Origin: an uncultured Acidobacteriota bacterium
GTDB lineage: Bacteria > Acidobacteriota > UBA6911
Assembly (NCBI GenBank): GCA_963827655.1
Contig: CAWHCF010000049.1
Location: 128,001-192,000, forward strand
Length of the DNA stretch: 64,000 nucleotides
Direction: 5' to 3'
This document shows, piece by piece, positions 5,155 to 59,832 of this stretch. Both the position numbers and the translations under genes were made by a program. Every line of letters begins with the position of its first letter. Position 1 is the stretch's first letter. The notes under the pieces were generated by a model. That model made no database searches. It had not been told where the DNA came from and saw only the letters and a program-made list of their open reading frames with translations.

Positions 5155-5340
5155 GATTGACGATTTACGATTGACGATTGACGATTTAAAAAAACAATTG
5201 AGTGTCGAATTCGTTAATCGTCAATCGTAAATTGACGGAGTGGCTGTTAGGATGGGTAAACAGACAATGCACGGGTTGTTAAATCGTCAATCGTCAATCG
5301 TTCTCAATCGTCAATCGTCAATCGTAAATCGTAAATCGTC
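5155..5340. repeat. Heptamer palindromic element, family A (TTGACGA runs followed by TCGTCAA runs)
   Basis: 4 units of TTGACGA/TTTACGA at 5157-5184, then several TCGTCAA/TCGTAAA runs ending immediately before the DUF58 ATG. Confidence 0.95.
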
Positions 5341-6252
5341 ATGGTGACTGTCCAGCAAACAACTCCGCCAACCAGGTTCATAGATCCGTCGGCACTGGCC
5401 AAAATCTCGAGCCTGGAACTGGTTGCAAGAACCGTTGTGGAGGGCTTCATCTCGGGGCTGCACCGCTCTCCGCATTTAGGGTTCAGCGTGAATTTCGCGG
5501 AATACCGCTCTTATCGCCCGGGTGACGACATTCGCAAGATTGACTGGAAAGTTTTTGCCCGGCTCGATCGTTTCTTCGTAAAAGAGTATGAGGGAGAAAC
5601 GAATACCAGCATCTACCTGATCCTCGATTGCAGCAGGTCGATGGCTTATGGGAGCCGGGGGGTTTTGAAACTCGAGTATGGCCAGTATCTCGCGGCGTCG
5701 CTTGCCTACTTTGCCTTCAAGCAGAGGGACAGCGTCGGGTTCGTCTCTTTCGACGAACAGGTGCAGGAATTTGTTCCTGCCCGGGGAAGTGTCGGCCATC
5801 TCAACACGGTGTTGCACGCCATCGAAAGGACCGGGCCGGGGCAAAAGAGTAATTTCATCAAGCCGCTGGTGAGCGCGGCCGAACGGGTGCGCCGCAAGGG
5901 AATCGCCATAGTGATTTCGGACCTGTACGACGAAACCAAGCACGTCATGGACGGCCTGAGGCACTTCGCCTTCAGGGGGAACGATGTCATCGTATTCCAC
6001 ATTCTGGATCCGACGGAACTCAGATTCGATTTCGAGGAGAGCGCGCAGTTCGTCGATCTTGAGACCAGAGCCGAAATGCACGTTATCCCCGACTACATTC
6101 GCCAGGAGTACCGAAAGATCATCAAGGATCAGACTACATTTTTCGAGAAGGAATGCCAGAAGGACAGGATGGATTACGCGCTGCTGGACATCTCCCAGCC
6201 CCTGGACCACGCCCTGTTCACTTACCTGTTACGCAGGCAGCAGCTCTATTAG
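5341..6252 (+). CDS. DUF58 domain protein (vWA-like MoxR partner)
   Basis: GLHRSPHLGFSVNFAEYRSYRPGDDIRKIDWKVFAR signature and LDCSRSM. Confidence 0.92.
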   Translation: MVTVQQTTPPTRFIDPSALAKISSLELVARTVVEGFISGLHRSPHLGFSVNFAEYRSYRPGDDIRKIDWKVFARLDRFFVKEYEGETNTSIYLILDCSRSMAYGSRGVLKLEYGQYLAASLAYFAFKQRDSVGFVSFDEQVQEFVPARGSVGHLNTVLHAIERTGPGQKSNFIKPLVSAAERVRRKGIAIVISDLYDETKHVMDGLRHFAFRGNDVIVFHILDPTELRFDFEESAQFVDLETRAEMHVIPDYIRQEYRKIIKDQTTFFEKECQKDRMDYALLDISQPLDHALFTYLLRRQQLY

Positions 6253-6253
6253 G

Positions 6254-6282
6254 CTTAGTTGCGTCTTCGTGTCTTAGTGGTG
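6254..6282 (-). repeat. 8-bp-periodic dispersed repeat, family E
   Basis: TTGCGTCTTCGTGTCTTAGTGGTG is the reverse complement of the ACCAC.AAG-ACACGAAG-ACGC pattern. Confidence 0.7.
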
Positions 6283-6283
6283 A

Positions 6284-11500: not shown

Positions 11501-12133
11501 AGCCAGGCCAGCAGAGAGCTGACGGGCAGTCGCCCGGTCAAGAGAGGGGCCAGGGCTCAGCAAGGCCAGCAGGGTCAGCAAGGCCAGCAGGGTCAGGGCC
11601 AGCAGGGTCAGCAAGGCCAGCAGGGCCAGCAGGGACAAGGCCAGCAGGGCCAGCAGGGACAAGGCCAGCAGACGGGCCAGGGGCAGGGAGGTGGACAGAA
11701 TCCCTCCGGAGGGGCCCCGCAGGGCTTTATCCGCGGCTTGACGGGGAACGCCACTGCGCCGCCGGTTGGTGTCGGACCTTACAGCGATGAAGACATGCGG
11801 CAACTCCGTCGTGAATTCCAGCAGCGGATGGGCGACGCCAGCGAGCTTCGCCGTTTGATGGACCGCAATTCGACGTCCTTGCAAAACCTGGATCAGGTCA
11901 TTGAAGCGCTCCGGCGGCTGGACAGCTCCCGCAACTTTAACGATCCGGAAGAAATCGCCCGCCTCAAGGGGGCCATCGATACTCTTCGGGGCGTAGAGGC
12001 GGATCTGGCCCGCGACCTGTCAAGGTTGACTCAGAAGGACAAATACTTTTACTCCGATGACAATCAGGCGCCGAGCAGTTACAAGAAGCTGGTCGACGAA
12101 TACTACAAGGCCCTGGCTAAAGGTAAACCGTGA
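8520..12133 (+). CDS. Giant DUF4175-like membrane-anchored coiled-coil protein (several frameshifts near 9625, 10070-10085, 11368, 11545, 11710)
   Basis: Consecutive ORFs 8520..9758, 9748..10125, 10143..11522, 11356.. and 11738..12133 form one protein: N-terminal TMs, Ig-like region, Q-rich coiled coil, C-terminal [16 protein letters not shown]. Confidence 0.75.
11550..11690 (+). repeat. Coding low-complexity (QQG)n repeat
   Basis: CAGCAAGGC/CAGCAGGGT/CAGCAGGGC tandem units encode QQGQQGQG. Confidence 0.85.
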
Positions 12134-13183
12134 TGAGAGTCGTGATCACGGGAGGAGCAGGATTCCTGGGGAGCCACCTGTGCGACCACCTTTTGAACCA
12201 GGGGCACGAAGTCATTTGCCTCGACAACCTGCTTACCGGCGCCGTCGATAACATCGCGCACCTGATGGGACACGAGAGATTCCGGTACGTAAAGCACGAT
12301 GTGACCGAATACTTGTTCATCGGGGATCCGATCGACGCGGTCATGCACTTTGCCTCTCCTGCCAGCCCTCGCGACTACCTTGAGCTTCCCATTCAGACTA
12401 TGAAAGTTGGCGCCCTGGGGACTCACAAGACCCTCGGGCTGGCCAAAAACAAGCGGGCGCGATTTCTCCTGGCCAGCACGTCGGAAACTTACGGGGATCC
12501 CTTGGTGAATCCGCAGCCCGAGACTTACTGGGGAAACGTCAATCCGATCGGATTGCGCGGAGTCTACGATGAGGCGAAGCGATTCGCTGAGGCGCTGACG
12601 ATGGCTTACAACCGTTATCATGGTATCGACACCCGAATCGTGCGCATATTCAATACCTACGGCCCTCGCATGCGGCCGCACGACGGCCGCGTGGTATCCA
12701 ATTTCATCGTCCAGGCCCTTCGGCAGGAACCTCTTACCGTCTATGGAAACGGCGAGCAAACGCGGAGCTTCTGCTACGTCGAGGACGAAGTCGGGGGGAT
12801 CGTAAAACTGCTCATGGCGCCCGATACGCCCGACATTCATGACCCCGTGAACATCGGCAATCCGCATGAACTCACCGTCATGGAAATCGCGCGCAAGGTA
12901 CTCAGCCTCACCGCTTCGTCCAGCAAGATCGTTCACGAACCCCTGCCACAGGATGACCCGAAGGTGCGGCGGCCGGACATAACCAGGGCTCAAAAGGCTG
13001 CTGGGCTGGAACCCCACAATAGCGCTGGAAGAGGGTCTTCGGCGCACCATCGATTACTTCAGAACCAAACTCAACACGGCGTCTGCGCGAGCGCCGATGG
13101 TAGTGGCGACTGACAAAGCGCGGCCTGCGGGCCGCATCAAGGGCGCGATCCGCGCGTGCTCACAGAAACCGGTTCATGATTGA
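12133..13183 (+). CDS. UDP-glucuronate decarboxylase-like SDR (frameshift near 12995)
   Basis: [24 protein letters not shown]. The shifted frame restores [21 protein letters not shown]. Confidence 0.88.
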
Positions 13184-13232
13184 GCACCGACCTCGCGCAG
13201 AATTAAGTTCTCGCGATCGAAATCTCGAGACA

Positions 13233-14460
13233 ATGAAAGTTCCTCTGCTCGATCTCGAGGCTCAGTACGCCGTGGTGCGCGAGAAGGTTCGCGCCGCGGT
13301 CGATGAGGTTCTGGAAAGCCAGCATTTCATCCTGGGGTGCCAGGTATCGCGACTGGAAGAGGAGATCGCGCGCCTTTGCGACCTGCCCTACGCCGTGGGC
13401 GTGGCTTCCGGAACCGACGCCCTGTTGCTCGCGCTTAAGGCCCTGGGCGTTGGACCGGGCGATTCCGTGATAACGGTTCCTTACACCTTCTACGCGACCG
13501 CCAGTACGATCGTCAATCTCGGGGCCAGGCCGCTGTTTGTCGATATCGACGACGCCAGCTACAACATGGATCCAGAGCAGCTGGCCCAGCTTCTGGAGCG
13601 CGACTGTTCGTTCAAACCTTCGTCGGGGACCCTGGTTCACAAGAGCTTCAGAAACCACGGTCAAGGCCATTGTGCCGGTCCATCTCTTCGGTCAATGCGC
13701 CGAGATGGCGGAGATCGCTCAGATTGCAGATCGCTATCAGCTCCCGACCGTGGAGGATGCCTGTCAGGCAATCGGGGCGCGATATCGGGAGAAAGCAGCG
13801 GGGTCGCTTGGCACACTCGGATGCTTCAGCTTCTTTCCATCCAAGAATCTCGGGGGGGGAGGGGATGGCGGCATGATCGTGACGCGCGATTCAGATCTTG
13901 CCCACCGGATACGCCTGCTGCGGGTACATGGAGAAAAGTCCAAGTACTACCATTCGATTATCGGGTTCAACAGCAGGCTGGACGAATTTCAGGCGGCAAT
14001 TCTTCGGGCCAAACTTCCCTATCTTGACGGCTGGACGACGATGCGACGGCGCAACGCCTGCTTTTACCAGACTGAACTACGGTCGGCCGGATTGGGTCCG
14101 AAAGTTGTGCCGCCGGCCGTATTGCCCGACCGGACTCACGTATTCCATCAGTTTGTGATTCGTTGCATGCGGCGCGATGAGTTGCGGAAGTTCCTGGAAA
14201 GCTGTGGCATTGGTACGGCGACCTATTATCCTCTTCCTTTGCATCAGCAGGAATGCTTTCGCTATCTCGGGTATGCGCCTGAGGACTTTCCCCGGTCATG
14301 CGCCGCGGCCCGGGAGACCCTGGCGCTTCCGGTTTATCCGGAACTCACGCCCGAGCAGAAGGCCTTTGTGGTTTCATCGATCACTGAGTTTTACGCTGCA
14401 AAACAAATACCACCAGGACACGAAGACACGAAGAAACACCAAATAAAAGGATCTTCATGA
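13233..14460 (+). CDS. DegT/DnrJ/EryC1/StrS PLP aminotransferase (frameshift near 13650)
   Basis: VASGTDALLLAL, VEDACQAIGA, FSFFPSKNLG, GFNSRLDE. Confidence 0.9.
14409..14442 (+). repeat. Family E repeat inside the 3' end of the DegT gene
   Basis: ACCACCAGG-ACACGAAG-ACACGAAG-AAACACCAA. Confidence 0.85.
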
Positions 14461-19814: not shown

Positions 19815-20579
19815 ATGATTAGAATCCGTCTCTTGCTGGCGAGCCTGCTGCTGGCAATTTCCGAGAACGTGCCGGCCCAGGACGAAGAGAAGATCCAGAA
19901 TTTGTTTCGTGAGGCGATAGAAGCCATGGGGGGCGACAAATTCTTGAAGGTCGATGACATCGTCAGCGAGGGAAATTACTTCTTCTTCGATCGAGACGGC
20001 AATTCATCGGGACTCATAAAATACAACGACTATACCAAGCTTCCCGACAAGAGTCGCAACGAGCTGGGAAACAGGAAGAAAGAGCGCGAAATCGTTGTTT
20101 TTAACCTGGAAAAAGGCGAAGGATGGATTCTGGAGGGACAGAAGGAGACTCGGGACGCCACCCCCGAACAGATGAAGGAATTCAGAAACATGATCAAGCA
20201 CAGCTTCGAACTCATCTTCCGAACCCGCTACAAGGATCCTGCGAACAAGCTGTTCTACCTGGGCGCGGGAGAAGGAAGCGATGTCCGTATGGATATTGTC
20301 AAACTTCTCGATCCGGAGAATGATGAAGTCACAATCTACTTTGATCGTTTGAGCAAGCTGCCGGCCAAAATCGAATATCGAGGTTTGGATAAGCGTGGAG
20401 TTCAACTCCGCCACGTCCAGGAATTCAGCATGTGGCATGTCATCCAGGGAATCAAGACGCCCTTGCGCACCGACTCCTTTGTCAACGGCCGGAAATCAGC
20501 CCAGTTTTTCGTGGTCAAGATCAGCTACAACAACAGCCTCACGGATGCCTTCTTCTCCAAGCCGTTGCCGCCGAAGTGA
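19815..20579 (+). CDS. Secreted hypothetical protein (LolA-like/lipoprotein-sorting fold possible)
   Basis: Signal peptide, AIEAMGG start, beta-rich body ending NNSLTDAFFSKP. Confidence 0.6.
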   Translation: MIRIRLLLASLLLAISENVPAQDEEKIQNLFREAIEAMGGDKFLKVDDIVSEGNYFFFDRDGNSSGLIKYNDYTKLPDKSRNELGNRKKEREIVVFNLEKGEGWILEGQKETRDATPEQMKEFRNMIKHSFELIFRTRYKDPANKLFYLGAGEGSDVRMDIVKLLDPENDEVTIYFDRLSKLPAKIEYRGLDKRGVQLRHVQEFSMWHVIQGIKTPLRTDSFVNGRKSAQFFVVKISYNNSLTDAFFSKPLPPK

Positions 20580-20588: not shown

Positions 20589-20780
20589 ATTGAGTAAACA
20601 AGTTGAAAGTGCTCTGAATCGAAAGTAATCCTTGATTGCTGCAATTTTCGAATGTGTTGCCTCAGCGCTTTCAAGCATTGAGTAAAAAGTAGAAAGTGCT
20701 GAGTCGAAAGTAGTCTTGATTGGTGCAATTTTCCAATGTGATGCCTCAGCGCTTTCAACTGCAGCACTTTATACTTTACT
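20589..20780. repeat. Tandem duplication (~88-bp period) of a hairpin element related to heptamer family D
   Basis: Units start at 20589 and 20677. Each has GAAAGTGCT..GA paired with TCAGCGCTTTCAA. 20681-20704 matches the reverse complement of 59809-59832 at 23/24. Confidence 0.85.
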
Positions 20781-20799
20781 TTGAACGCGTGCAGCCGTT

Positions 20800-22071
20800 T
20801 CACGCGTAAATTCCCCGAATCCGCGTGCCGCGGGCGACCCGATCGATGGCCAGCATGTAAGCTGCGATCCTCATGTTGACGTTGTGAGTCTCGGAGTAGC
20901 GGACCACTTGCGCGAAGCTGTCGGTCATATAGTCAGCCAGCCGCTCGTTAACCATCGATTCTTTCCAGAAATAACCCTGCCGGTCTTGCACCCACTCGAA
21001 GTAGGAAACCGTGACACCGCCGGCGTTGGCCAGAATGTCAGGGATAACGAAGATTCGTTTGTCTTCCAGGATCAGGTCCGCTTTGGCGGTCGTCGGACCA
21101 TTGGCTCCTTCGGCGATGATCCGGGCCTTGATGAGACTGGCATTGAGGGACGTGATCTGGTTCTCAACCGCAGCCGGAACCAGAATGTGGCAGGGAAGCT
21201 CCAGGAGCTCCCGATTGGTGATGCGATCCGTGTCGGGAAATCCGTCGAGCGTCCGGTTCCGCCGATGATATTCGACGACTCTGGGGATATCCAACCCGTC
21301 AGGATTGTAAATGCCGCCACGAATGTCAGAGACGGCGACGACCTTGAATCCTTCGGTATGCAGGAGCTGAGCCGTAACGGAACCTACATTCCCGAATCCC
21401 TGGATCGCGACCATCGAATCCGAGGGCGCAAGACTGAACTTGGCGCACGCTTCCTTGATCGCGATCGCGAGTCCACGGCCGGTCGCTTCCCTCCTTCCCG
21501 CCGATCCGCCTAGCTCGACAGGTTTTCCGGTTATCACGCCGGTTACTGTCTGGTGCGCGTGCATGCTGTAGGTGTCCATCACCCAGGCCATGATCTGCTC
21601 GTTTGTGTTCACATCCGGGGCGGGAACATCCTTTTCTGGACCCAGGAATTCGTACAGTTCGGCCGTGTAGCGCCGCGTCAGCCGCTCGAGCTCTCCGGTA
21701 GACATCCGGGATGGATCACAGATAACCCCGCCCTTGGCTCCACCGAAGGGAATATTCACAACCGCGCATTTCCAGGTCATCCATGCCGCGAGCGCCTTGA
21801 CTTCATCCAGGGTTACGTCGGGAGCGAAGCGGATTCCCCCTTTGCTCGGGCCGCGCGAGATATTGTGCTGCACACGATAGCCGGTAAAGACCTGCAGCCT
21901 TCCGGTGTCCATGAACACGGGAATGTAGACCGTCACCTCTCTGCGCGGATACCGAAGAAACTGATACAGTCCGTCATCCAGGTTCAGTTTTTGAGCAGCG
22001 ACATCAAACCGCGACATCATGGCTTCGAAGGGATTGATTTCACTGTCCTGCTCTGCCATCAGCAGTGCCAT
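20800..22071 (-). CDS. gdhA: Glu/Leu/Phe/Val dehydrogenase (glutamate dehydrogenase)
   Basis: [35 protein letters not shown]. Confidence 0.92.
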
Positions 22072-24602: not shown

Positions 24603-26087
24603 ATGATTCAACCGTCGCTGGAGGAAGTCGAAGAGTTAGCGGCTCGGTATACAGTAATCCCGGTACGCCGGGATATCCTGGGAGACCTTCTGACTCCTGC
24701 CGCAGCGTTTCTTCGGGTAAATCAAGGGCGCAGGCGGGTATTCCTGCTCGAAAGCGTGGAAGGCGGGGAGCGTCTGGCCCGGTACTCCTTCGTGGGGTGG
24801 GATCCTTTTCTGGTAGTCCGGGCCAAAGGAGATTCACTCACTTTGGAGGAGATGGGTGAGACCGCGCGGGAGACAGGGAAACCGCTTGAAAAACTTCGCG
24901 CCCTGGCCAGGCAGTTCAGGCCCGCCACCTTTCAGGATCTTCCTCCCTTCGCCGGGGGGGGCGTCGGGTATTTCGCTTATGACCTTGTCCGGCAATTTGA
25001 AAGGCTGCCGTCGATCACACCGGACGAGCTGCAACTGGACGACCTCCACATCATGTATTTCTCGACGATTCTCGCCTTCGATCACCTGAGACACCGAATT
25101 CACATTATCGCCAATATCTTCCCCAACCGGGGCAGGCAGAGTCTGCAAGCCAAGTATCAGGACGCATTGCTGCGTCTCAACCAGATTGAAACGCGGCTGA
25201 CGGCACCCATTTCACTCCCGGCTCCACTCGCTGCGAGCCGGATTCCGGACCCGGCTTCGAATCTCACCGAAGATCAATACGACGCGAATGTCGAGAAGGC
25301 GAAGGACTACATCCAGGCCGGAGATATCTTCCAGGTGGTTCTGTCTCAGCGCCTCGCGATGCCTATCGAATGTGAGCCTTTTGATATTTACCGGGCTTTA
25401 AGATTCATCAACCCCTCGCCCTACATGTTCTTTCTCCGGATGGACGATCTCTACCTTGCGGGCGCCTCTCCTGAAATGCTGGTGAAGGTGCGAGACGGGA
25501 AGGTTGAATACGGACCGATCGCGGGCACGCGGCCCCGGGGAAAGACGCCGCAAGAGGATGCTCGCCTGGCAGAGGAACTTGTCCGGGACGTGAAAGAGCG
25601 GGCCGAGCATATCATGCTGGTCGATTTGGGACGCAACGATCTAGGGCGGGTATGCAAGTTCGGAACGGTCAAGGTCACGGATCTGATGCGCACGGAAAAG
25701 TATAGCCATGTGATGCACCTCGTCAGCAGTGTAGAGGGGCAGCTGCCGGATGGATTGGATAGCTTTCACGCGCTCGAGGCGTGTCTCCCGGCAGGGACCG
25801 TGTCGGGCGCCCCTAAGGTGAGGGCTATGGAAATCATTGAAGAATTGGAGCCGTGCCGACGGGGAGTTTACGGCGGGTCGGTAGGGTATGTGGATTTCTC
25901 AGGTAACCTCGATACCTGTATCGCGCTGCGCACCCTGGTCATCAAGGACGGCACGGCCTACATCCAGGCGGGTGGCGGCATTGTCGCCGACTCTGATCCG
26001 GTGCTCGAGCGCGAGGAATCCTGGAATAAGGCGAAGGCGCTGATCCGGGCCGTGAAATTCGCCCATGAAGGGCTGAAGATGAATTGA
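24603..26087 (+). CDS. trpE: Anthranilate synthase component I
   Basis: [41 protein letters not shown]. Confidence 0.95.
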   Translation: MIQPSLEEVEELAARYTVIPVRRDILGDLLTPAAAFLRVNQGRRRVFLLESVEGGERLARYSFVGWDPFLVVRAKGDSLTLEEMGETARETGKPLEKLRALARQFRPATFQDLPPFAGGGVGYFAYDLVRQFERLPSITPDELQLDDLHIMYFSTILAFDHLRHRIHIIANIFPNRGRQSLQAKYQDALLRLNQIETRLTAPISLPAPLAASRIPDPASNLTEDQYDANVEKAKDYIQAGDIFQVVLSQRLAMPIECEPFDIYRALRFINPSPYMFFLRMDDLYLAGASPEMLVKVRDGKVEYGPIAGTRPRGKTPQEDARLAEELVRDVKERAEHIMLVDLGRNDLGRVCKFGTVKVTDLMRTEKYSHVMHLVSSVEGQLPDGLDSFHALEACLPAGTVSGAPKVRAMEIIEELEPCRRGVYGGSVGYVDFSGNLDTCIALRTLVIKDGTAYIQAGGGIVADSDPVLEREESWNKAKALIRAVKFAHEGLKMN

Positions 26088-26352
26088 CGATTGACGATTT
26101 ACGATTGACGATTTAACGAGTACGGGAGATTCGTCAATCGTCGATAGGGTATACGAGGATCGCTAGCGTAGCCTGCAAGCGCTAGGTTTGTGGAACGGCG
26201 CGGAAAATTGGCAGCTGGCGCGGACAATGTCAAGGGTAGTCGTGAAATGCGGCACATGGATCAATTGAGAATGGCGAATCGAATCGTCAATCGTCAATCG
26301 TCAATCGTCAATCGAGAAGGTGTTTCAATCGTCAATCGTCAATCGTCAATCG
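26082..26352. repeat. Heptamer palindromic element, family A, with a ~140-nt internal segment
   Basis: 4 units of TTGACGA/TTTACGA from 26084 (supplying the trpE TGA), then TCGTCAA runs at 26131, 26284-26311 and 26329-26349 just before the trpG ATG. Confidence 0.95.
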
Positions 26353-28427: not shown

Positions 28428-29664
28428 CCACATGGTTTCGCCGGGTCCTGATGCCCGCGGGCGCTACGGTCCTTATGGAGGAAGGTTTGTTCCCGAAACT
28501 CTCATGGGGCCGCTTCAGGAGCTGGAAGAGGCCTATGCGAAGGCAAGGGAGGATCCATCGTTTCAGGCCGAGCTGGAAGCGCTATTTCGTACCTACTCGG
28601 GACGGCCGACGCCCCTCACCTTTGCCCGCCGCCTCTCGCAGCACCTGGGCCGCGGTCGAATCTATCTCAAGCGTGAAGACCTGAACCATACCGGGGCTCA
28701 CAAGATCAACAATGCCCTGGGCCAGATCCTTCTCGCCCGCCGCATGGGAAAGACTCGCATCATTGCGGAGACCGGCGCCGGTCAGCACGGGGTTGCTACG
28801 GCAACGGTAAGCGCGCTCTTCGGCATGGAGTGTGAAATCTACATGGGGACGGAGGACATGCGCCGCCAGGCGTTGAACGTCTTCCGCATGCGCCTCCTGG
28901 GAGCAAAGGTAACTCCGGTTCATTCCGGCAGCCGGACCCTGAAGGACGCCATCAATGAGGCGATGCGGGATTGGGTGACCCATGTGGCGCGCACTCATTA
29001 CCTGCTTGGTTCGGTTCTGGGCGCTCACCCATACCCGTGGATGGTTCGAGATTTCCAGTCGGTCATCGGCAAGGAGACACGCAAGCAGATCCTGCATGAA
29101 GAACAGAGGCTCCCCGACCTCTTGCTGGCCTGCGTTGGAGGAGGGAGCAACTCGATCGGACTCTTTTACGACTTCCTGGGCGAACCCGGCGTGCGCATGG
29201 TCGGGGTCGAGGCCGGCGGCCGCGGCCCGGCCCTGGGAGATCACGCGGCGCGCTTCTCCGCTGCCAGGACCGGAGTCCTCCAGGGTACATTGAGCTATGT
29301 CCTGCAGGACGAAAACGGGCAGATTGCCGGCACCCACTCCATTTCCGCGGGGCTCGATTACCCGAGCGTGGGGCCGGAACATGCTTACCTCCATGACATC
29401 GGCAGGGTCGAGTACACATCGGTTACCGACGAACAGGCACTCGAGGCATTTCAACTTTTAAGCCGGCTGGAAGGGATCATTCCCGCCCTCGAGAGCGCTC
29501 ACGCTATTGCGGAGCTGGTACGGCTTCGAGACACGCTGGAAAAAGACGCAGTGGTGGTGGTCAACCTTTCAGGCCGCGGCGACAAGGATGTCAGTCAGGT
29601 CGCCGAGCTTCTGTCGATTGCGGATTGCGGATTGAACAACAAGGAATCGCGGACTGCGGATTAG
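28408..29664 (+). CDS. trpB: Tryptophan synthase beta chain
   Basis: [35 protein letters not shown]. The C-terminal tail is repeat-derived. Confidence 0.96.
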
Positions 29665-29723
29665 GCGCCAGTCGCTACCGATTTTATTTCAATCCGCAAT
29701 CTGAAATCCGCAATCCGCAATCG
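29615..29723. repeat. Heptamer palindromic element, family B (GATTGCG / CGCAATC)
   Basis: CGATTGCGGATTGCGGATTGAA inside the trpB 3' end pairs with TTCAATCCGCAATCTGAAATCCGCAATCCGCAATCG. Confidence 0.9.
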
Positions 29724-29737
29724 AGAAACGGACCACT

Positions 29738-30538
29738 TTGATGCGAGCCATCGGTCGAAAATTCGAGGAACTCAAAAATAACGGGAAGAAAGCCTTTATT
29801 CCGTTCATCACCGCGGGCGATCCCGATCTCGAAACTACCGTCCGGTTGGTCCTCGAGCTGGAGCGCGCCGGGTCGCACGTGGTAGAGCTGGGGATTCCGT
29901 TTTCCGATCCGCTCGCGGACGGGCCGACGATCCAGCGCTCCTCAGAGCGGGCGCTGCGCCATGGGTATGGCCTTGCGGACTACCTGCAGGCGGTAACAAG
30001 CATCCGGCGCCACACCTCGATCCCGCTGGTTCTCTTCAGCTATTTCAACCCAATCCTTCAATACAGCTTGGAGCGGCTCGCAAGCGACGCGCGGGCCGCC
30101 GGAGTGGATGGCATTCTGGTTACGGATATGACTCCCGAGGAGGCGGACGATTACTGTTCCGTTCTGGAGCGGCACGAACTCGATCCGATATTCCTGGTTG
30201 CTCCTACCAGCAGCGCCGAGCGGGTCGGCCGCATCGTGCAGCGCGCCCGCGGATTTGTCTATCTGATCTCACGCACGGGCGTGACCGGCGAGCGGGAGAA
30301 TTTTTCGGAATCGGTTGCTCCCACTCTGCGCCGCGTGAGAGAGCGCACCGGGCTTCCGGTCGCGGTCGGATTCGGCATCTCCACTCCCGAGCAGGTGAGG
30401 GCCGTGTGGGACGTCGCCGAGGGTGCAGTCGTGGGTAGCGCGATCGTAGCTCGAATAGAGAAGCTGGCGGGATCAAGCCAACTGCCGGCTCAGGTGGGAG
30501 AATTCTGCAGGTGGCTGACAGAGGCGCGGAATGGCTAA
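29738..30538 (+). CDS. trpA: Tryptophan synthase alpha chain
   Basis: FITAGDP, ELGIPFSDPLADGPTIQ, VGFGIS. Confidence 0.96.
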   Translation: MMRAIGRKFEELKNNGKKAFIPFITAGDPDLETTVRLVLELERAGSHVVELGIPFSDPLADGPTIQRSSERALRHGYGLADYLQAVTSIRRHTSIPLVLFSYFNPILQYSLERLASDARAAGVDGILVTDMTPEEADDYCSVLERHELDPIFLVAPTSSAERVGRIVQRARGFVYLISRTGVTGERENFSESVAPTLRRVRERTGLPVAVGFGISTPEQVRAVWDVAEGAVVGSAIVARIEKLAGSSQLPAQVGEFCRWLTEARNG

Positions 30539-30904: not shown

Positions 30905-32002
30905 ATGGCAATGGTCATCGTCATGCAGCGAGGCGCAACCGAGAATCAGATCCAGCAAGTGATCGACCGGTTGATCGGAGATGGTTTCGACGTCCATCGG
31001 TCGACCGGAGTTGAGCGGACGGTCCTTGGCGTTGTCGGAGGAAAGATCGTCGACACGCGAGACTACGAGCTTCTGGATGGGGTAAAGGAGGTCGTACGGA
31101 TCACTCAACCGTACAAGCTGTCGAGCCGCACCTTCAGACTGGAAGGGACCGTCGTGGACGTGGGCGGGATCAGAATCGGGGGCGATGATGTCGTTGTCAT
31201 GGCCGGTCCGTGCACGGTCGAAAGTCAAGAGCAGGTCGAGGCCGCAGCGGAAGCGGTGCGGAAGTCGGGCGTCAAGATCATGCGCGGCGGGGCCTTCAAG
31301 CCGCGCACTTCGCCCCATAGCTTCCAGGGGATGGGCGAGCAAGGTCTCAAGCTGCTGCACGCGGCGGCGCGCCGCCAGGGAATGTATGTGGTCTCGGAGG
31401 TCATGGATCATACTCAAATTCCGATGTTCCTCGAGTATGCCGACATACTGCAGGTGGGCGCCAGAAACATGCAAAATTTCAACCTGCTCAAGGAACTGGG
31501 AAAGGTCCGGAAACCGGTTCTGTTGAAGCGAGGAATGTCGGCGACCATTGAGGAGCTTCTCCTGGCCGCGGAATACATCATGACCGGGGGTAACCACGCG
31601 GTTATCCTGTGCGAACGGGGTATTCGCACCTTCGAGAGTTCGACGCGCAACACCCTGGATCTCTCCGCCATACCCGTGGTGAAAAAGCTGAGTCACCTCC
31701 CCATAATTGTCGATCCGAGCCACGGGACCGGACGCAGGGACAAGGTCGCGCCCATGGCGCGGGCCGCAGTGGCAGCGGGAGCCGACGGGCTATTGATCGA
31801 GGTTCATCCCGATCCCGACAAGGCTCTGTGCGACGGCGCCCAGTCGCTGCTTCCGGAGCAGTTCGGCCATCTGATGGACGAACTGCATCTGATCGCCTCG
31901 GCCGTCGGGCGTTCACTTGATGGCTACCAGGGGCAGTCTAACCATCTACGTCATCAGTCATTGGTCATTGGTCATTTGTCATTTGCTACGAACGACCAAT
32001 GA
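30905..32002 (+). CDS. aroF: DAHP synthase class I-beta with N-terminal regulatory domain
   Basis: AGPCTVES, RGGAFKPRTSP, QVGARNMQN, LLKRG, DPSH. Confidence 0.92.
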   Translation: MAMVIVMQRGATENQIQQVIDRLIGDGFDVHRSTGVERTVLGVVGGKIVDTRDYELLDGVKEVVRITQPYKLSSRTFRLEGTVVDVGGIRIGGDDVVVMAGPCTVESQEQVEAAAEAVRKSGVKIMRGGAFKPRTSPHSFQGMGEQGLKLLHAAARRQGMYVVSEVMDHTQIPMFLEYADILQVGARNMQNFNLLKELGKVRKPVLLKRGMSATIEELLLAAEYIMTGGNHAVILCERGIRTFESSTRNTLDLSAIPVVKKLSHLPIIVDPSHGTGRRDKVAPMARAAVAAGADGLLIEVHPDPDKALCDGAQSLLPEQFGHLMDELHLIASAVGRSLDGYQGQSNHLRHQSLVIGHLSFATNDQ

Positions 32003-32038
32003 CCAATGACCAATGACAAATGACCAATGACCAATGAC
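31950..32038. repeat. Heptamer palindromic element, family C (GTCATTG / AATGACC)
   Basis: GTCATCA-GTCATTG-GTCATTG-GTCATTT-GTCATTT, then about 6 units of AATGACC/AATGACA. Confidence 0.93.
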
Positions 32039-32914
32039 GTCATACCGTTCCGCAGAGTGGCAATTCACGGAGTCGGGCTCATAGGCGGGTCTCTCGGCAT
32101 GGCTCTCAAGCGATGCGATGCTCGCGTGAATATCCGAGGCATAGGACGGGACGCGGCGCGCCTGGAACGGGCCCGTCAGCTGGGAGCGATCGACGAATAC
32201 CGTACGGACTTGAACGGCGTTTCGGACGTCGACCTTGTCGTTCTTGCCACTCCCGTCGAACACATACTCGAGACCCTGGGGGCCATAGGTCAGCATCTCT
32301 CGGAGGGAACGCTCGTCACCGACGTCGGCAGCACCAAGCGGAAGATCGGTAGCAAGGCCGAGGATTGCCTGCCCGCCGCCATCGAATTCATCGGAGGTCA
32401 TCCGATTGCCGGAAGGGAGCGCGGCGGGGTGGAGAATAGCGTGCCCGATTTGTTCGAGCGTGCGCCCTATGTTCTCTGCCCAGGTTCTCGAGAGCGTTCT
32501 CGAAGCCTGGAGAAGCTGGTGCAAACCGTGAAGGCAATTGGCGCCGAACCGGCTGTTATTTCGGTTGAAGAGCATGATCGAATTCTGGCCTGGAGCAGTC
32601 ACTTGCCGCAGATTCTCTCGACGGTCCTGGCCAGTCTAGGTCTCGAGCAGGAGACGCGCGGATACCCGCTGGTCCGGCTTTCGGGCACGGGTTTCAGAGA
32701 TGTCCTGCGTCTGGCGGGGAGCCCGTACTCCGTTTGGGAAGGGATTCTGGAGAGCAATGCCGATAACATCGAGCACGCGCTAGGGGAATTCATCCAGCAC
32801 CTGGAGCGGGTCCGCACCGGGCTGAAACAGGAGAGCCTCTCGGCCGATTTTGGCCGCGCCGTTGAGTTTTATGGCCGCCTGCGAGACTCGAAGAAGCCTT
32901 CGAACGGCGAGTGA
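32027..32914 (+). CDS. tyrA: Prephenate dehydrogenase
   Basis: GVGLIGGS, TDVGSTK, GGHPIAG, HD..SHLPQ, GFRD. Confidence 0.92.
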   Translation: MTNDVIPFRRVAIHGVGLIGGSLGMALKRCDARVNIRGIGRDAARLERARQLGAIDEYRTDLNGVSDVDLVVLATPVEHILETLGAIGQHLSEGTLVTDVGSTKRKIGSKAEDCLPAAIEFIGGHPIAGRERGGVENSVPDLFERAPYVLCPGSRERSRSLEKLVQTVKAIGAEPAVISVEEHDRILAWSSHLPQILSTVLASLGLEQETRGYPLVRLSGTGFRDVLRLAGSPYSVWEGILESNADNIEHALGEFIQHLERVRTGLKQESLSADFGRAVEFYGRLRDSKKPSNGE

Positions 32915-37484: not shown

Positions 37485-38727
37485 TTAACCAGCCTTCTCC
37501 AGTAGAGCAAACACAATGTCTTTGTTGTCAACCATCTCCCGCGTAATAACAAACTCCTTCACTTTTTTCTGCGAAGGGAGCTGATACATGACGTCCAACA
37601 TAAGATCCTCAAGAATGATCTTCAACCCCCGCGCCCCCATCTTCCGTTCAAGTGCCAGGTGAGCCACCGCGCCGACCGCGTCGTCGGTGAATTTCAGTTT
37701 GACGTTTTCAAACTCGAAAAGTTTCTGGTATTGACGTATCAGCGCGTTTTTGGGCTTGGTCAAGATCTCAACCAGAGCCAGCTCATCGAGTTCCGACAGA
37801 GAGCCGATGACCGGCAGACGTCCGACAAATTCCGGAATCAAACCGAATTTGATGAGGTCACGCGGCTGGGTAAGCTCAAGTGCGTTCGAAGTTGCCGCGC
37901 TTTTCGCCTTCTTCCCGTCTTTCTCGCTGGCTATGAAACCGAGGCGTCTTCTTGCCCACGCGGCGCTCGATGATTTTCTCGAGACCCACGAAGGCGCCGC
38001 CGCATAAGAATAGTATGTTGGTCGTGTCTATCTGGATGAACTCCTGATGTGGATGCTTGCGCCCTCCTTGCGGCGGGACGTTCGCTATGGTTCCCTCCAG
38101 GATTTTCAGCAATGCCTGCTGGACTCCCTCCCCTGACACGTCACGGGTAATCGACGGATTTTCGTCCTTGCGGGCAATCTTGTCGATCTCGTCGATATAC
38201 ACGATTCCCTGCTGGCATTTTTCCTTGTCACCCCCGGCGTTCTGAAGCAGCTTGAGGATGATGTTCTCCACGTCTTCGCCGACGTAGCCTGCTTCTGTGA
38301 GGGTCGTGGCATCGACGATGGCGAACGGAACTGAAAGCATCTTAGCCAGAGTCTGGGCCAGCAGGGTTTTTCCGGTTCCGGTCGGTCCGATGAGCAGGAC
38401 ATTGCTCTTCTGCAACTCGAGATCGCTTCTTTTTTTGGTGATCTCGAGCCGCTTGTAGTGGTTGTACACCGCGACGGCGAGCTTCTTCTTGGTCGTCTCC
38501 TGTCCGATGACGTAAAGATCCAGGAATTCCTTGATCTCCTGGGGTTTGGGGAGCTTCTCTCCGATCGGTGAAGTAACGACATCATCCGCGATGATCTCGT
38601 TACATACGTCGACGCACTCGTCGCATATATAGACCGTCGGTCCTGCGATTAGCTTCTTGACGTCGTTCTGGCTCTTGGAGCAGAACGAACATCTCAGAAT
38701 ATCATCGCGCTCGTCGTCCTTTCTCAA
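37485..38727 (-). CDS. clpX: ClpX ATPase (frameshift near 37944)
   Basis: CSFC..CDEC zinc finger, [17 protein letters not shown]. Confidence 0.96.
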
Positions 38728-40742: not shown

Positions 40743-40827
40743 TGGTGCGAAAGGGGGGAGTTGAACCCCCACCCCTTGCGGGACTGGATCCTAAGTCCAG
40801 CGCGTCTGCCAGTTCCGCCACTTTCGC
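40743..40827 (-). tRNA. tRNA-Leu (anticodon UAG)
   Basis: Reverse complement is GCGAAAGTGGCGGAACTGGCAGACGCGCTGGACTTAGGATCCAG...GGTTCAACTCCCCCCTTTCGCACCA, with a long variable arm and encoded CCA. Confidence 0.96.
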
Positions 40828-41070: not shown

Positions 41071-41146
41071 AATTGACGATTTACGATTGACGATTGACGA
41101 TTATCTTTCGTTGTGACTCCCAATCGTCAATCGTAAATCGTCAATT
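41071..41146. repeat. Heptamer palindromic element, family A, perfect 26-bp inverted repeat
   Basis: 41071-41096 is the exact reverse complement of 41121-41146. Confidence 0.96.
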
Positions 41147-41534: not shown

Positions 41535-41610
41535 GATTGACGATTGACGATTGACGATTGACGATTGAAAAACCAATTGGGGGAAATCGTCAATCGTCAA
41601 TCGTCAATCG
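41535..41610. repeat. Heptamer palindromic element, family A
   Basis: 4 units of TTGACGA at 41537-64, then 3 units of TCGTCAA. The last unit supplies the stop of the convergent gene. Confidence 0.95.
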
Positions 41611-46292: not shown

Positions 46293-46421
46293 AATTGACG
46301 ATTGACGATTGACGATTGACGATTTAAACTTGCGGTTGCTGGCCAATCGTCAATCGAATCGACGGTTTGACGAACGTCTTTTTTTAAAAATCGTAAATCG
46401 TCAATCGTAAATCGTCAATCG
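46293..46421. repeat. Heptamer palindromic element, family A
   Basis: 4 units of TTGACGA at 46295-322, an internal TCGTCAA, and terminal TCGTAAA-TCGTCAA-TCGTAAA-TCGTCAA supplying the gltA stop. Confidence 0.95.
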
Positions 46422-47786: not shown

Positions 47787-47887
47787 CGATTGCAGATTTC
47801 GGATTGCAGATTGCGGATTGAAACCTGCTTCGCCCCTGGGAAAGTCTTTTGTTCAATCCGCAATCCGCAATCCGCAATCCGCAATCG
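47787..47887. repeat. Heptamer palindromic element, family B
   Basis: 36-nt arms CGATTGCAGATTTCGGATTGCAGATTGCGGATTGAA and TTCAATC(CGCAATC)4G. Confidence 0.95.
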
Positions 47888-53979: not shown

Positions 53980-53997
53980 CTCGAAAGCTGTAAGATA

Positions 53998-54027
53998 TTG
54001 ACAGGAATCAACCACCGTACTCATAAT
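53998..54027 (+). promoter_or_regulatory. Putative sigma70 promoter of the TBDR gene
   Basis: TTGACA, 18-nt spacer, CATAAT, about 25 nt upstream of the ATG at 54052. Confidence 0.6.
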
Positions 54028-54051
54028 CTGGTAAAATCAGCGGGGGTGTCC

Positions 54052-57000
54052 ATGCGAAACATAGGGAAACAAACCTGGATGGCGTGGCTTGCGTTCGCTC
54101 TGTTTATCAACGTAGTGCCTGCTTCGGCAGACGTCACCGGCTCCATCAGCGGGGTGGTGAAGGATTCGACCGGCGCCATAGTCCCCGGAGCCGAGCTGGT
54201 CGCCACGAACGTGGGGACAAACGCCACTTATAGCGCTCTCAGCGACGAGTCCGGAGTCTACGTGGTCCGGGCCATCCCGATAGGACTCTACAACCTGTCG
54301 GCCGAAGCGCGCGGCTTCAAGAAATTCGAATCTAAAGGCATCCGGGTCCAGGTCAACGAAGTAGCGCGGGTAGACGTCGCCCTGACGGTAGGCGAGACTT
54401 CGGAGACAATCGTCGTATCCAGCAAAGTCACCCACGTTGATACCGAATCTTCTACTCTCAAGACCGTGGTGGACCAGCGGAGGATCGAGGATCTTCCTCT
54501 GAACGGCAGGAATCCGACTCAGCTCATGCGGCTCGTAGCCGGTGTCCAGGCTGATCCCAGGGCTGACGTGTTGTCAGGGACCACCTATCCGGGCGTAGTT
54601 CCGGTTTCGGTAAATGGCGGCCGGGCCAACACAACGAATTACGTTCTCGACGGCGGACAGAACAACGATCACTACAGCAACGCGCCCAACCCCATGCCGA
54701 ACCCGGATGCCTTGCAGGAGTTCAGTGTTCAAACCAACAACTTCAGCGCCGAATTCGGACGAAACGTGGGCGGAATCGTCAACGCCGTCACGAAGTCGGG
54801 AACCAACAAGCTGCACGGGACCGCATTCGAGTACGTGCGCAATCATGCGCTCAACGCGGCCAACTTCTTTTCGCCCATCAACGCACAGGGCGAAAAACAG
54901 GACGACGGCCTGAAGCGCAACCAGTTTGGAGCCACGCTGGGAGGACCGGTCTGGTTAGGCCCGCTTTACGATGGACGCGACCAGACCTTTTTCTTCTTCT
55001 CGTATCAGGGAACGCTCGATCGCAGAACGCCGCAATCCGTCCAGCGCGTGGTTCCCACTGAAGCGCAAAGGCGCGGTGATTTCTCGGCGCTCTCCAGGCA
55101 GCTTCGAAATCCTTTCACGGGCGCAAACTATCCCAACAATCAGATTCCGTTATCCGATTTCAATCCTGTGTCTAAATTCATCACCGACAATTATCTTCCT
55201 GTGCCCTCCGCCGGTGGAAATACGATCGCGTTTGCCGACACTGACCAACCTTGATGACCATCAAACCATGGTCCGGGGAGACCATAAGCTTTCCACCAAC
55301 AATACGCTGAGCGGCCGATTCTGGGTCTCCAACGCCAGCCAGCCCGCCTTTCTCGATTCGAAGAACTACCTGGCTCAGAGTACGGGAAGAACCTGGCGCA
55401 ATACCAGCGTCGTGATCGGCGACACGCACGCGTTCGGAGCCACGGTCCTGAACAGCGCGCTCTTCAGCTTCAACCGGACCAACGGAAACAACTTCCAGGT
55501 CTCTTCCGGACAGGAGCCTCACGGATCTGGGAGTCAAGATGTACAACGACCAGACCCCGCAATACCACCTGACCGTGGACGGATACTTCATGATCAATAC
55601 CGGGGACACGAACACGTTTCTTCGGGACGAGTACCAGATAAGCGATACGATTCGCTGGTCGAAAGGCAAGCACCAGATCAGCCTGGGCGGCGAGTATGGA
55701 CGGGGTATTGGCGATGTCGTCAATAATTTCCGCGCCAACGGCCAGTTCGGGTGGAGTGGCGCGGCCCCCTTCACCGGCGATGCGCTCGCCGACTTCTTCG
55801 TGGGCAAGTTCAACAGCTCTGGTCCCAGGGAATTGGCGAATACAAAAAGACGCGCTTCGATATTCTCGCGCTTTTCTTCCAGGACAGCATTCGTCTCACC
55901 AACCGGCTTACAGTGGATCTGGGCCTCCGGTGGGATCCCTTCTTTCCCTACACAGACGTGGATGGGAAGCTCTCGGCGTGGAGACCGGGTCAAGAGTCGA
56001 CGCGATACGTCAATGCCCCGGTCGGAATTCTTTACCCGGGTGATGCCGGCTTGCCTGACGGGGGTTACGATACATCCTGGAACAACTTTGGGCCTCGCTT
56101 CGGTTTTGCATGGGATCTCTTCGGAGACGGCAAGACAAGCCTGCGCGGCGGCTACGGTATCTTCTACGATCGGTCCAACACGATCTCGACCAACAGCCAG
56201 GCCAACCAGGGACCCTTCGGTACTCTGGTCACGATCAACGGAAACGCCGCCAACACCTTCAGCGATCCGTACTTGGGTGCGACGAATCCGTTTCCGGCCA
56301 GCACAAATCCGCCGCCCGACGTAGCCTTTGTTCTGCCTCATGTCGCCTTTGTGTATGAGGCCAATATGCGAAACCCTTACATCCAGGCTTGGAACCTCAC
56401 GCTCGAGCGGGAGGTGGGATGGGGATTCGTCGCCCGGGGGGCCTATGCGGCGTCGAAAGGGACGCACCTGGTGATCGGCCGGGAAGGGAATCCTGCCATC
56501 TTCGCGCCTGGCGTCACCACGGCCACAACCAACCAGCGCCGGCCGCTATTTCCAAATTTCGGCCAGGTGACGCTCGTCGAAGGGACGGGGAATTCAACGT
56601 TCCATTCGATGCAGTTGACGGCAGAGAGAAGATTCAATCAGGGCTTCTCGATCCTCACGAATTACATGTTCTCAAAGAGCATCGATGACAGTTCCGCCAA
56701 TAAAGCGACCGGCCAGACGCGCGTCGGCATCTACGATCAGTCGTTCGACCGGGGTCCGTCTGATTTCGATCACAGCCATGTGTTCACCTCCTCGAGCCTC
56801 TGGGAGATTCCGGGGCGACTCGACAATCGTCTCGCGAATGCTTTCGTGGGCGGCTGGAACCTGACTTCAATCATTACGCTTCAGAGTGGGTTCCCCTTCA
56901 CCGTCGCGAGTGGCGTTGATAATGCTCGAAGCGGCACAGGTAGCCAGAGGGCTGACCTGGTCGGAGACCCCATTCTCCCGGACAATCGCAGCCGGGGTGA

Positions 57001-57298
57001 AGAGGTGGCGATGTGGTTGAACCGGACTGCCTTCGCGCCCAACGTACTCGGAACATTTGGCAACCAGGGGCGGAACATGTGGCGGGGTCCGGGATACGCC
57101 ACAGTGGACCTTGGAGTTCACAAGAACTTCCAGGCTGCCGAAGCGCTCAGGATTCAGTTCCGCTTCGAAGTATTCAATGCTTTCAACCGCCCAAATCTGA
57201 TGGGGCCGAATGCCAGCCAGAATTCCGCTACATTCATGAGGACCACGACGGCCTTCGACCCGCGCATCCTGCAGTTCGCCATGAAGCTGATCTTTTGA
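54052..57298 (+). CDS. TonB-dependent receptor, Oar-like with carboxypeptidase-regulatory domain (frameshifts near 55243, 55505, 55818)
   Basis: GSISGVVKDSTGA, LPLNGRN, EFSVQTNNFSAEFG, NNFGPRFGFAW, C-terminal QFAMKLIF. Confidence 0.9.
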
Positions 57299-57381
57299 GG
57301 TGAGACTTTGGGTTTCGCTTGCGGCATCGCCGCAGCGGCGAGGCCAAGTTTTGAACTCTTCTTGTTTTGGAGAACGAAGCC

Positions 57382-58639: not shown

Positions 58640-58644
58640 CACCT

Positions 58645-58670
58645 CACCGCAAAGTCGCGAAGACGCCAGG
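58645..58670 (+). repeat. Degenerate family E repeat
   Basis: CACCGCAAAG-TCGCGAAG-ACGCCAGG between convergent genes. Confidence 0.55.
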
Positions 58671-58676
58671 GATTAA

Positions 58677-59748
58677 TCAAGAATCAAAGCCGACGAATAC
58701 CGGTTCAGGGGTTAGATCGACACCGAAAGTTGTCTTGACTCCGGTCTGAATCTCGCGCGCCAGGTTGAGCACATCCTCGGCTGTGGCGCCCCCTCGATTC
58801 ACAAGCGCGAGCGTGTGCTTGGAGGAAAGCGCTACTCTTCCGCGGGCATATCCTTTCGGAAATCCGGACCTCTCGATAAGCCAGGCAGCCGGTACTTTGA
58901 CGTTCCCAACAGGTGCCTTGTATCGAGGAAGGGTTTCGGCGGGGGATAGAAAACCGCCGCGTCGAGCAGCCTCCTGGATTTCCAAGTAAGCCGCTTCGCT
59001 CACAATCGGATTCTTGAAGAACGAACCTGCGCTCCTGCTATCCGGGTCACCCGAAATCAGAAGCATCGCCTTGCCCGCCCGAATGCTAAGGACGGCCTCG
59101 CGGACGTCGGTGAGCGAAGGGTCGCCGGGTCTTCCGGCGAAATAACGCTGAAGATCGGCATATTCGATCCGAGGTTTTCCATTCACACGAAGCGCATAGG
59201 TGACGCTGAGGACGATGTACCGGTCTCGCATGGTGGTGTTGAAGAGGCTGGTTCGATACGTGAAACCGCATTGCGCGTTGCTCAGCTCCAGAATCGAGCG
59301 CTTCTCTCGATCGAGGACCCGCACGGACACGATTACCTCGCTCACCTCCTCTCCGTAGGCGCCGACGTTTTGAACCGGCGTTCCCCCCACCGTTCCAGGA
59401 ATCCCGCTGAGGCACTCAATGCCAGCCCAGTTCCGCTCGACGGCCATCCGGACCACGGGATCCCAATCTTCGCCTGCCGCAGCCGTAAAGGTGCCGCTCT
59501 GCCCTGATCCGTGTTGTCGGATGCCACAAAGCGCCACCCTTAAAACCAGACCGGGGAAGCCTGAGTCGGCGATCAGCGTATTGCTCCCGCCCCCCAGGAT
59601 GAACACCGGAATTCCTCGACTATCAGCAAAGTCCAAAGCTTCCAGGGCGCGGCTTTCTTCAGTTGCTTCTGCCAGAAAGCGAGCCGGTCCACCGATCCCC
59701 AGAGTAGTGAAGGGGGCCAGAGGGCACGTTCTCAAGAATCCAGGACAT
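58677..59748 (-). CDS. murB: UDP-N-acetylmuramate dehydrogenase (frameshift near 59721)
   Basis: GGGSN, SGIPGTVGG, QNVGAYG, GSFFKNP. The probable true N-terminus MSWILENVP-LAPFTT starts at 59748. Confidence 0.92.
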
Positions 59749-59754
59749 CTCTCT

Positions 59755-59832
59755 AGTAGAAAGTAGAAAGTGCGAGTGTTGAGTGTTGAGTACTTTAAAT
59801 TACTTTTCACTCAGCACTTTCTACTTTCTACT
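59755..59832. repeat. Heptamer palindromic element, family D (AGTAGAA/AGTGTTG vs ACTTTCT/ACTCAGC)
   Basis: AGTAGAA-AGTAGAA-AGTGCG-AGTGTTG-AGTGTTG-AGT pairs with ACTCAGC-ACTTTCT-ACTTTCT-ACT and supplies the TAG of the LLM gene. Confidence 0.88.

Follow-up and report, generated by a model that had tools for sequence, protein, structure and literature searches.

Repetitive extragenic palindromic sequences (REPs) and REP doublets forming hairpins (REPINs) are dispersed, gene-less palindromes at gene junctions, whose cognate gene, encoding a REP-associated tyrosine transposase (RAYT), is wrapped in its own repeat, with several paralogue-repeat pairs per genome. A similar arrangement is described here for heptamer arrays of an uncultured Acidobacteriota bacterium of the UBA6911 lineage (assembly GCA_963827655.1), in particular for ten elements located at gene junctions in 64,000 nucleotides of contig CAWHCF010000049.1 (positions 128,001 to 192,000, forward strand), the stretch referred to below as the window. 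In general, each element consists of a tandem run of a 7-bp unit, a spacer (the loop) and the reverse-complement run, the two runs being its arms, and elements were assigned to families by their unit (A to D in the window). As with REPs and REPINs, the junction palindromes are gene-less and cognate genes lie within their own repeat type, several such pairs being present in the genome; unlike REPs and MITEs (miniature inverted-repeat transposable elements), the cognate protein is not an HUH nuclease, the arms are tandem heptamers, and the elements of families A and B have no excess of target-site duplications, shared termini or shared loop.

DNA uptake sequences and their receptor ComP offer another comparison: there, too, dialects correspond to variants of the receptor, inverted pairs lie at the ends of genes, the core genome is favoured and spread is by recombination. 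Unlike that system, the signal here is a tandem run of five cores and the protein is predicted to be a cytoplasmic helical ring, not a pilin. We know of no protein link for the cyanobacterial short tandemly repeated repetitive (STRR) heptamers. The initial annotation of the window had matched family C to STRR2; the match holds only against TT(G/T)GTCA, the consensus as given in that annotation, of which the window unit of family C is a rotation.

In Rehm et al. 2015 (PMC4692102), intergenic heptamer repeats of Xanthomonas (GGGAATC) and Nostoc (GGGGA(C/T)T) are interpreted as G-quadruplex sequences, with a mode of four counted units and 70-75 convergent inverted pairs per genome, located near stops and many of them in housekeeping operons. 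The elements studied here resemble the repeats as described there in being intergenic heptamer runs of about four units that lie near stops in convergent inverted pairs, and the Xanthomonas unit is a rotation of a heptamer with a GAAT core; they differ in the absence of G-tracts, in the coexistence of several families and in replacement between strains. In supplement 2 of the same paper, Xanthomonas array #15 is listed at six bases after bccP and overlaps the XCC0516 start. Because XCC0516 is a solved five-chain homologue of the cognate proteins described below, this array supports the link between protein and repeat; the terms 'helix bundle' and 'xcc0516' do not occur in the main text of the paper, which proposes no protein partner.

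According to PMC4990558, the intervening sequence (IVS) in the 23S rRNA of Coxiella burnetii carries an S23/four-helix-bundle gene enclosed by an inverted-repeat stem of 28 bp, and tandem heptamers precede the gene; the stem is cut by RNase III, and the IVS is of horizontal origin with no mobility enzyme. In the present genome, PF05635/S23 genes are found within inverted arms at cassette loci elsewhere, not at the ten window elements; unlike the IVS, the sites here are junctions of protein genes, not rRNA, and most copies are gene-less. In two further reports, Avd, the accessory protein of diversity-generating retroelements, is a five-subunit barrel said to resemble S23 proteins (PMC6182149), and flipped-out RNA bases are held in crevices between its five protomers (bioRxiv 10.1101/2023.10.23.563531). 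In contrast to such retroelements as described, no linked reverse transcriptase with template, and no variable repeat or region, accompanies the arms here. The gene-less architecture is already in print for the Xanthomonas repeats and the Coxiella IVS, and the window elements belong to this published repeat class. No paper joining dispersed heptamer arrays to the TIGR02436 protein family was found, most subscription journals being outside the coverage of the search.

The reading preferred here, to which we assign a probability of about 0.5, is that the elements are gene-less target sites of small non-catalytic five-subunit rings (TIGR02436/PF05635, S23- and Avd-like), which presumably bind the arms, and that the elements spread by recombination at gene junctions. 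The observations behind it are a fixed geometry, a ceiling of five cores in A and B arms, genes located inside arms of their own family, a deletion series in family F and one junction replacement, and the heptamer elements are tied to the ring-protein family by several independent lines.

In the genome searched (G000; 8.18 Mb, 90% complete), 11 TIGR02436 loci were found, none of them in the window. The genes are wrapped in arms of family A (one), B (one), C (one), E (one) and F (four) and in hexamer-type arms (three, by eye), so that the paralogous cognate proteins proposed in the initial annotation, and its suggestion that such arrays often flank four-helix-bundle genes, were borne out at loci elsewhere in the genome. 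The A, B and C proteins scored 86, 71 and 88 bits against the TIGR02436 hidden Markov model (cut-off 24). The A and B proteins, encoded at G000 C26:290684-291034 and C6:206805-207158, both of 117 amino acids and 62-63% identical, matched the solved structures 2RLD (E 1e-18) and 2GSC (XCC0516) in a profile search, and five-subunit rings may be inferred for them from the five chains of each structure. Avd was not matched in this search of solved structures, and the single-chain structure prediction was of low confidence (pLDDT 55).

The association between protein and unit was also found outside this genome. Among 82 loci (the 80 best homologues, from many phyla, and the two own genes), scanned with a permissive pattern, 74 had a heptamer run with a GA(A/T/G)T core in the same polarity, on both sides in 49, versus 3 and 2 in the wrong polarity. 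Heptamer arms flank cyanobacterial homologues of the A/B protein, and more distant protein clades keep other units, each its own across phyla. The dispersed unit is the unit around the resident gene in genome G034, and the unit of the resident gene is that of the trpE-trpG element in four of five genomes tested. Among the 39 strictly labelled loci of the 74, residue 65 was K where unit position 6 was A (xAC; 15/15) and G where it was C (xCG; 6/6); a single-residue code at this position is suggestive only, as the loci are not phylogenetically independent. At L106 and L298, both proteins are flanked by GAAT-type xAC arms and F replaces Y in the GANYR motif, which makes this a possible second specificity position.

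Matches to the cognate protein were found in 32 of 72,556 plasmid records and 2 of 50,697 phage records. The five-core A pattern occurred at 11 loci in viral sequence, and at none of them did the gene lie within 800 nt; in the viral contigs L255, L258 and L264, five-core A arms lie at gene ends with no cognate gene nearby, and one viral-contig arm switches from A to B units along its length.

The A unit is GATTKAC and the B unit GATTKCR, neither with a GGG tract. At position 5 of the A unit, G was found in 351 and T in 158 of 511 units, and all other positions were at least 98.6% fixed. The G/T choice showed no mirror concordance between the two arms of an element, the arms varying independently; the frequency of T depended on the position of the core in the arm (9-44%), and no single master pattern was found for five-core arms, the patterns fitting independent positions. 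When ATT cores in register were counted, A and B arms were found to have five cores with a sharp cut-off at six: A arms with 2, 3, 4, 5, 6 and 7 cores numbered 13, 39, 74, 194, 16 and 8 (five cores in 194 of 347), and B arms 14, 23, 28, 63, 3 and 2 (five cores in 63 of 133). This number matches the five-chain rings of the solved homologues. In 19 other genomes of the family, about 49 of 531 perfect arms with at least five cores had at least six (distinct arms counted from lists), and at trp loci not chosen by pattern, 13 arms had five cores, eight had four and one had six. No pairing beyond that in shuffles was found between the outer and inner flanks of an arm.

Genome-wide, 529 period-7 runs were found, versus 7-38 for each of periods 4-6 and 9-13; period 14 gave 368 runs, period 15 gave 53 and period 8 gave 102. 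The period-8 runs belong to a separate palindromic family of 8/9-mers (719 motif matches, among them window positions 14417, 18557, 33043, 45488 and 49350), which is evenly spread and does not track A/B density. Clusters of at least two arms in which the left arm comes first and the right arm last numbered 113 for A and 43 for B, with none in the reverse order for either family; nine right-right and five left-left clusters were also found for A. Of 129 left-right pairs, 128 combined arms of the same family.

Gene positions were taken from our own gene caller, and assembly frameshifts add noise to the distances; 135 of 166 stop-side arms were within -35 to +10 of a stop codon (median +1), versus 2.3% of random positions, with peaks at +1, -6, -13 and -20. 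Start-side arms had a median distance of 23.5 nt with a small peak at 3, and the ribosome site is mostly spared. Lone arms (84 genome-wide) were at stops in 34 of 43 cases, and outer arms deep inside a called open reading frame (ORF) were 3 of 262 for A and 6 of 90 for B. The orientation of the genes flanking the elements did not differ from background (p 0.37). The density of A/B elements varies strongly among contigs and tracks tRNA density (rho 0.46, p 0.005). At atpD (G000 C34:88610-90159), the whole gene lies between an A left arm and an A right arm.

Filled/empty polymorphism, which the initial annotation had anticipated among relatives, exists at the trpB-trpA and trpE-trpG junctions. 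Strain L013 has 10 mismatches in 2155 nt relative to the window (99.5% identity) and a different trpB-trpA junction, which is shared by contigs of runs X1 and X7 (L013 and X1 are possibly not independent; X7 is from another study). Because the trpB-trpA junction of the 83%-identical L014 is the same in outline, the L013-type junction is taken to be ancestral. In the window, the final codons of trpB, the spacer and the start of trpA have been replaced, and four neighbouring trpA codons carry four synonymous changes, the pattern expected of a tract from a foreign donor. The comparison shows replacement of the whole junction, rather than insertion, as the apparent route by which the B element of this junction arrived, one conspecific junction being resolved. 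The same junction in relatives carries elements of family A, C, F or other families, or nothing; in L013 it is filled by a worn copy of the 8/9-mer family.

At the trpE-trpG junction, the best 30 loci (own included; labels by eye) comprised 10 intact A-type elements fused to the stop, six worn or other elements and 14 loci with none. With the own locus set aside, the position is filled in 9 of 29 relatives, and the tree needs five changes. In the sister genomes L275 and L287 (92% coding identity), every core of both arms and the loop differ, and in the pair L279/L284 third positions are 91% identical and loop columns 50/71.

Family F, which is not represented in the window, occurs at 23 loci (including G000 C4:22080-22661), and its copies share ends beyond the arms: the start follows TAG, often a stop, and the finish is a hairpin with a GCA loop followed by TAG. 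Eleven of 15 family F loops are internal deletions of the gene-bearing F cassette. A MITE-like history is shown for family F only, and this family is the best place to seek an enzyme that moves a cassette.

Several steps can be proposed. By analogy with Avd, each ring paralogue would quite probably bind one arm as single-stranded RNA or DNA with one ATT core per subunit, so that binding would set the length of five cores, the tolerance of G or T at one position and the linker specific to each family. The mirror arm would pair with the first arm in a stem of 25-35 bp competing with the ring, and, like the stem cut by RNase III in 23S rRNA IVSs, this stem may allow a gene junction to tolerate the insert. 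Gene-less copies would arise from gene-bearing cassettes by loss of the interior, a step shown for family F and presumed for A and B, after which the loop would turn over fast. Whole junctions would then be swapped between lineages through recombination anchored in conserved gene ends, as shown once in the form of a replacement with a putative foreign donor, a process that would need neither a transposase of the element's own nor a target duplication. Ring binding would keep the arms matched to the resident paralogue, either through biased survival or recombination of DNA (a drive, like that of DNA uptake sequences) or through selection at the mRNA level. We advance only tentatively the further proposal of a nuclease-free molecular drive, in which five-subunit rings would read the five-core arms in single-stranded nucleic acid and skew the retention or recombination of junction DNA, each paralogue stamping its own repeat dialect on hundreds of core-gene junctions.

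Why bacteria have an excess of heptamer repeats and what S23/four-helix-bundle proteins do are two old open questions. The matching of several repeat types with a ring-type protein points to a testable partner for long-unexplained bacterial repeats. In this genome, A and B form a close paralogue pair whose units differ, the five-core rule yields a prediction of stoichiometry, and a comparison of two strains shows how an element arrives. If the link between protein and repeat is true, the Xanthomonas quadruplex candidates become binding sites of a protein with a solved structure. If a drive operates, STRR-type repeats, Xanthomonas repeats and ORF-bearing rRNA IVSs would have one cause, and the S23/four-helix-bundle family would have a function.

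The initial annotation had instead favoured a dedicated generating or mobilising mechanism of the REP/MITE-like, non-autonomous kind with paralogous cognate proteins, which is taken here as movement by a transposase specific to the arms. The strict arm order and same-family pairing would be expected of such elements, and family F, multi-copy with deletion-derived loops and shared ends, resembles them, as does a true MITE-like subfamily in which C-type arms surround a conserved 90-nt interior at about a dozen loci (including G000 C1:88100-88230). For families A and B, transposition of this type was not supported. Target-site duplications were not in excess, direct repeats of at least 3 nt being found at 41 of 156 A/B elements, versus 33.8 in shuffles (maximum 56), and of at least 4 nt at six, versus 9.3; copies shared no termini or interior beyond the arms; loops matched elsewhere for none of 43 B and 10 of 113 A elements, those of A being local duplications or nested repeats; and the trpB-trpA event was a replacement. 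The genome contains one Y1 transposase gene (PF01797) with no A, B, C or D arms beside it (other transposase families were not searched), and two reverse transcriptase hits (group II intron-type and a fragment), neither of them in or next to such arms. The one GxxExxY gene, a class that the initial annotation had listed as possibly enclosed between arms, is frameshifted (C19:35523-35875) and flanked by words of the 8/9-mer family, not by heptamers. Since the cognate protein is in addition all-helical with no known nuclease role, movement by a dedicated transposase is considered quite unlikely. Control of mRNA by host-domesticated elements, in which ring and stem would act on transcripts just past stops (RNase III processing, decay or coupling in housekeeping operons) and selection alone would keep the arms, is compatible with the target-site reading, and is judged unlikely as the whole explanation to a lesser degree. 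The location of stop-side and lone arms at stops, the sparing of the ribosome site and the persistence of the trpE-trpG element across genera fit this explanation, and most Xanthomonas repeats are reported to be transcribed (PMC4692102) and the stem of the Coxiella IVS to be cut by RNase III (PMC4990558). It is at odds with the 14 of 30 trpE-trpG loci without an element, with a family at trpB-trpA that differs or is absent by lineage, with a near-identical strain lacking the B element, and with flanking gene orientation at background. No intrinsic terminators or promoters were found at the trp elements, which lack a terminator-like U tract; in RNA runs X16 and X17 (contigs, thin cover), no element joint was among the 15 of 149 joints listed, which is evidence in neither direction.

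Templated synthesis, in which a ring-guided polymerase would extend both sides of a break close to the end of a gene by about five units each in the manner of telomerase, the ends being joined over captured sequence, would account for arms that both read 5' to 3' away from the neighbouring gene, for their independent variation at the G/T position, for unique loops, for whole-arm unit switches between sister genomes and for copies in viral contigs, and Avd does partner a reverse transcriptase. However, the group II intron-type reverse transcriptase and the fragment in this genome are not beside arms and no template RNA was seen, the dependence of T frequency on core position is more like inheritance or a binding preference, and the synonymous changes beside the trpB-trpA element favour a DNA donor, so that this mechanism is regarded as very unlikely. 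Simple repeats born by slippage, forming neutral or mildly useful hairpins with no protein partner and with the four-helix-bundle genes as bystanders, would be suggested by long runs and by tandem duplications starting at arms, which show that slippage occurs, and by array-rich genomes in which no cognate gene was detected. Arm orders of 113:0 and 43:0, the single degenerate position, the five-core cut-off, the 128 of 129 same-family pairs and clades that keep their own unit across phyla are contrary to it and make slippage as the sole origin highly improbable, in agreement with the initial annotation, which had also argued against random slippage.

Several results weigh against the reading of the elements as ring target sites spread by junction recombination. 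With respect to the protein partner, no cognate gene for family D was found among the 11 TIGR02436 loci of this 90%-complete genome, or for the dominant arrays in G033 (95% complete), G013 and G023; the unit of the resident gene does not match that of the trpE-trpG element in G051; and the residue-65 rule rests on one independent pair on supported branches and fails in L207 and L209. With respect to arm length, no clear five-core mode was found in families C, D, E, F and G here (with the core definitions used), and runs of 8-15 units occur in G033, G039 and L099. As for origin and spread, profile searches of 156 A/B loops found no four-helix-bundle remnants, and the loops bear no trace of the resident cassettes apart from a single match of 15 nt to the A cassette; a four-helix-bundle gene was absent from all 60 trp-junction loci; a donor of the trpB-trpA tract was not found among 80 metagenome loci and 29 family loci; a clear donor patch was absent from the coding DNA beside the trpE-trpG element, as judged from flanking divergence in sister pairs; and swaps between orthologous junctions do not explain the five-core arms of viral contigs or the 84 lone arms.

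All ten junction elements reported in the initial annotation were found in the window at the positions it gave, as follows.

5155..5341: family A element flanked by a piece of a MoxR-type AAA gene (stop 5153) and by a DUF58 gene (ATG 5341); the left arm (5155-5186) and the right arm (5306-5337) have 5 cores each, and inner right-arm pieces lie at 5211-5232 and 5282-5299.
20589..20787 (end approximate): worn family D element with an 84-bp tandem duplication at 20589-20758, between convergent neighbours, an ORF ending at 20579 and a Glu/Leu/Phe/Val dehydrogenase gene ending at 20800.
26082..26351: at the trpE-trpG junction, a family A element in which the trpE stop is supplied by the left arm (26082-26113, 5 cores); right arms 26282-26313 (5 cores) and 26327-26351 (4 cores), 3 nt before the trpG ATG.
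29613..29758: trpB-trpA replacement tract with a family B element (left arm 29616-29633, right arm 29691-29722), a new trpB tail, a shifted trpA start and synonymous changes at 29749, 29752, 29755 and 29758.
31950..32040: at the aroF-tyrA junction, a family C element with its left arm at 31957-31983 and its right arm at 31994-32038, the latter supplying the called tyrA ATG at 32027; the 83%-identical L014 has a plain junction.
41071..41146: family A element upstream of a PTPS (queD-like) gene; arms 41071-41102 (5 cores) and 41122-41146 (4 cores).
41535..41609: family A element between convergent genes, 1 nt past a stop at 41533; arms 41535-41566 (5 cores) and 41585-41609 (4 cores).
46293..46420: family A element whose neighbours, a CBM9 gene (stop 46291) and the citrate synthase gene, are convergent; arms 46293-46324 and 46389-46420, each with 5 cores.
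47788..47886: family B element flanked by divergent genes for citrate synthase and a cytochrome c protein; arms 47788-47819 and 47855-47886, each with 5 cores.
59755..59832: family D element that separates a luciferase-like gene from murB.

Twenty period-7 runs were counted in the window, versus 0-1 in each of 30 Markov-resampled controls, and each window element has a predicted long stem (-38 to -99 kcal/mol). The elements sit between protein genes, none has a gene inside its arms, and no arm falls within a Pfam domain of a flanking gene, consistent with the earlier statement that no catalytic domain is disrupted; the window has no rRNA match, and its only Rfam match is one tRNA. The four full units noted in the five A left arms and in B at 47788 were confirmed, each followed by a fifth ATT core. 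The shared layout of array, spacer and mirror array holds generally, with the qualification that the elements at 5155 and 26082 carry extra right-arm pieces, that the left arm at 29615 has three cores only, and that the worn, partly duplicated D element at 20589 is not a clean example. The core and polarity that families A, B and C were said to share are not firm for C, because C occurs in both arm orders (10 one way versus 2 the other way genome-wide, and reversed in L037) and its reverse strand is closer to the A unit than the given strand (5/7 versus 4/7 positions).

The arrays are not an assembly artefact, since the 41071 and 47787 loops are both present, slightly changed, in contigs of another run (X1) and the same arrays are present in 19 of 50 other genomes of the family. 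Small deletions in the 41071 loop distinguish run X1, and the loop at 47788 has two substitutions in runs X1 and X7; further single-base differences of run X1 are at 30853, 40645 and 44226.

Tandem duplications of 84-140 nt that start at an arm were found at G000 C26:290523-290690, C1:90203 and C17:57040 as well as in the window at 20589-20758, one such duplication lying in the 3' end of the A cognate gene; these may be due either to recombination at arms or to assembly error. Split or shifted reading frames were seen at 4130-5153 (MoxR-type AAA), 13176-14460 (DegT), 37485-38727 (ClpX) and 53998-57298 (TonB receptor); together with one extra base at position 26078, before the trpE stop found in relatives, and a shifted end of aroF at 31930-31945, they suggest assembly indel errors. 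A 9-nt repeat at 11551-11671 encodes a QGQ-rich stretch, and a tRNA-Leu(TAG) gene at 40743-40827 lies directly upstream of the trigger factor-clpP-clpX-lon cluster.

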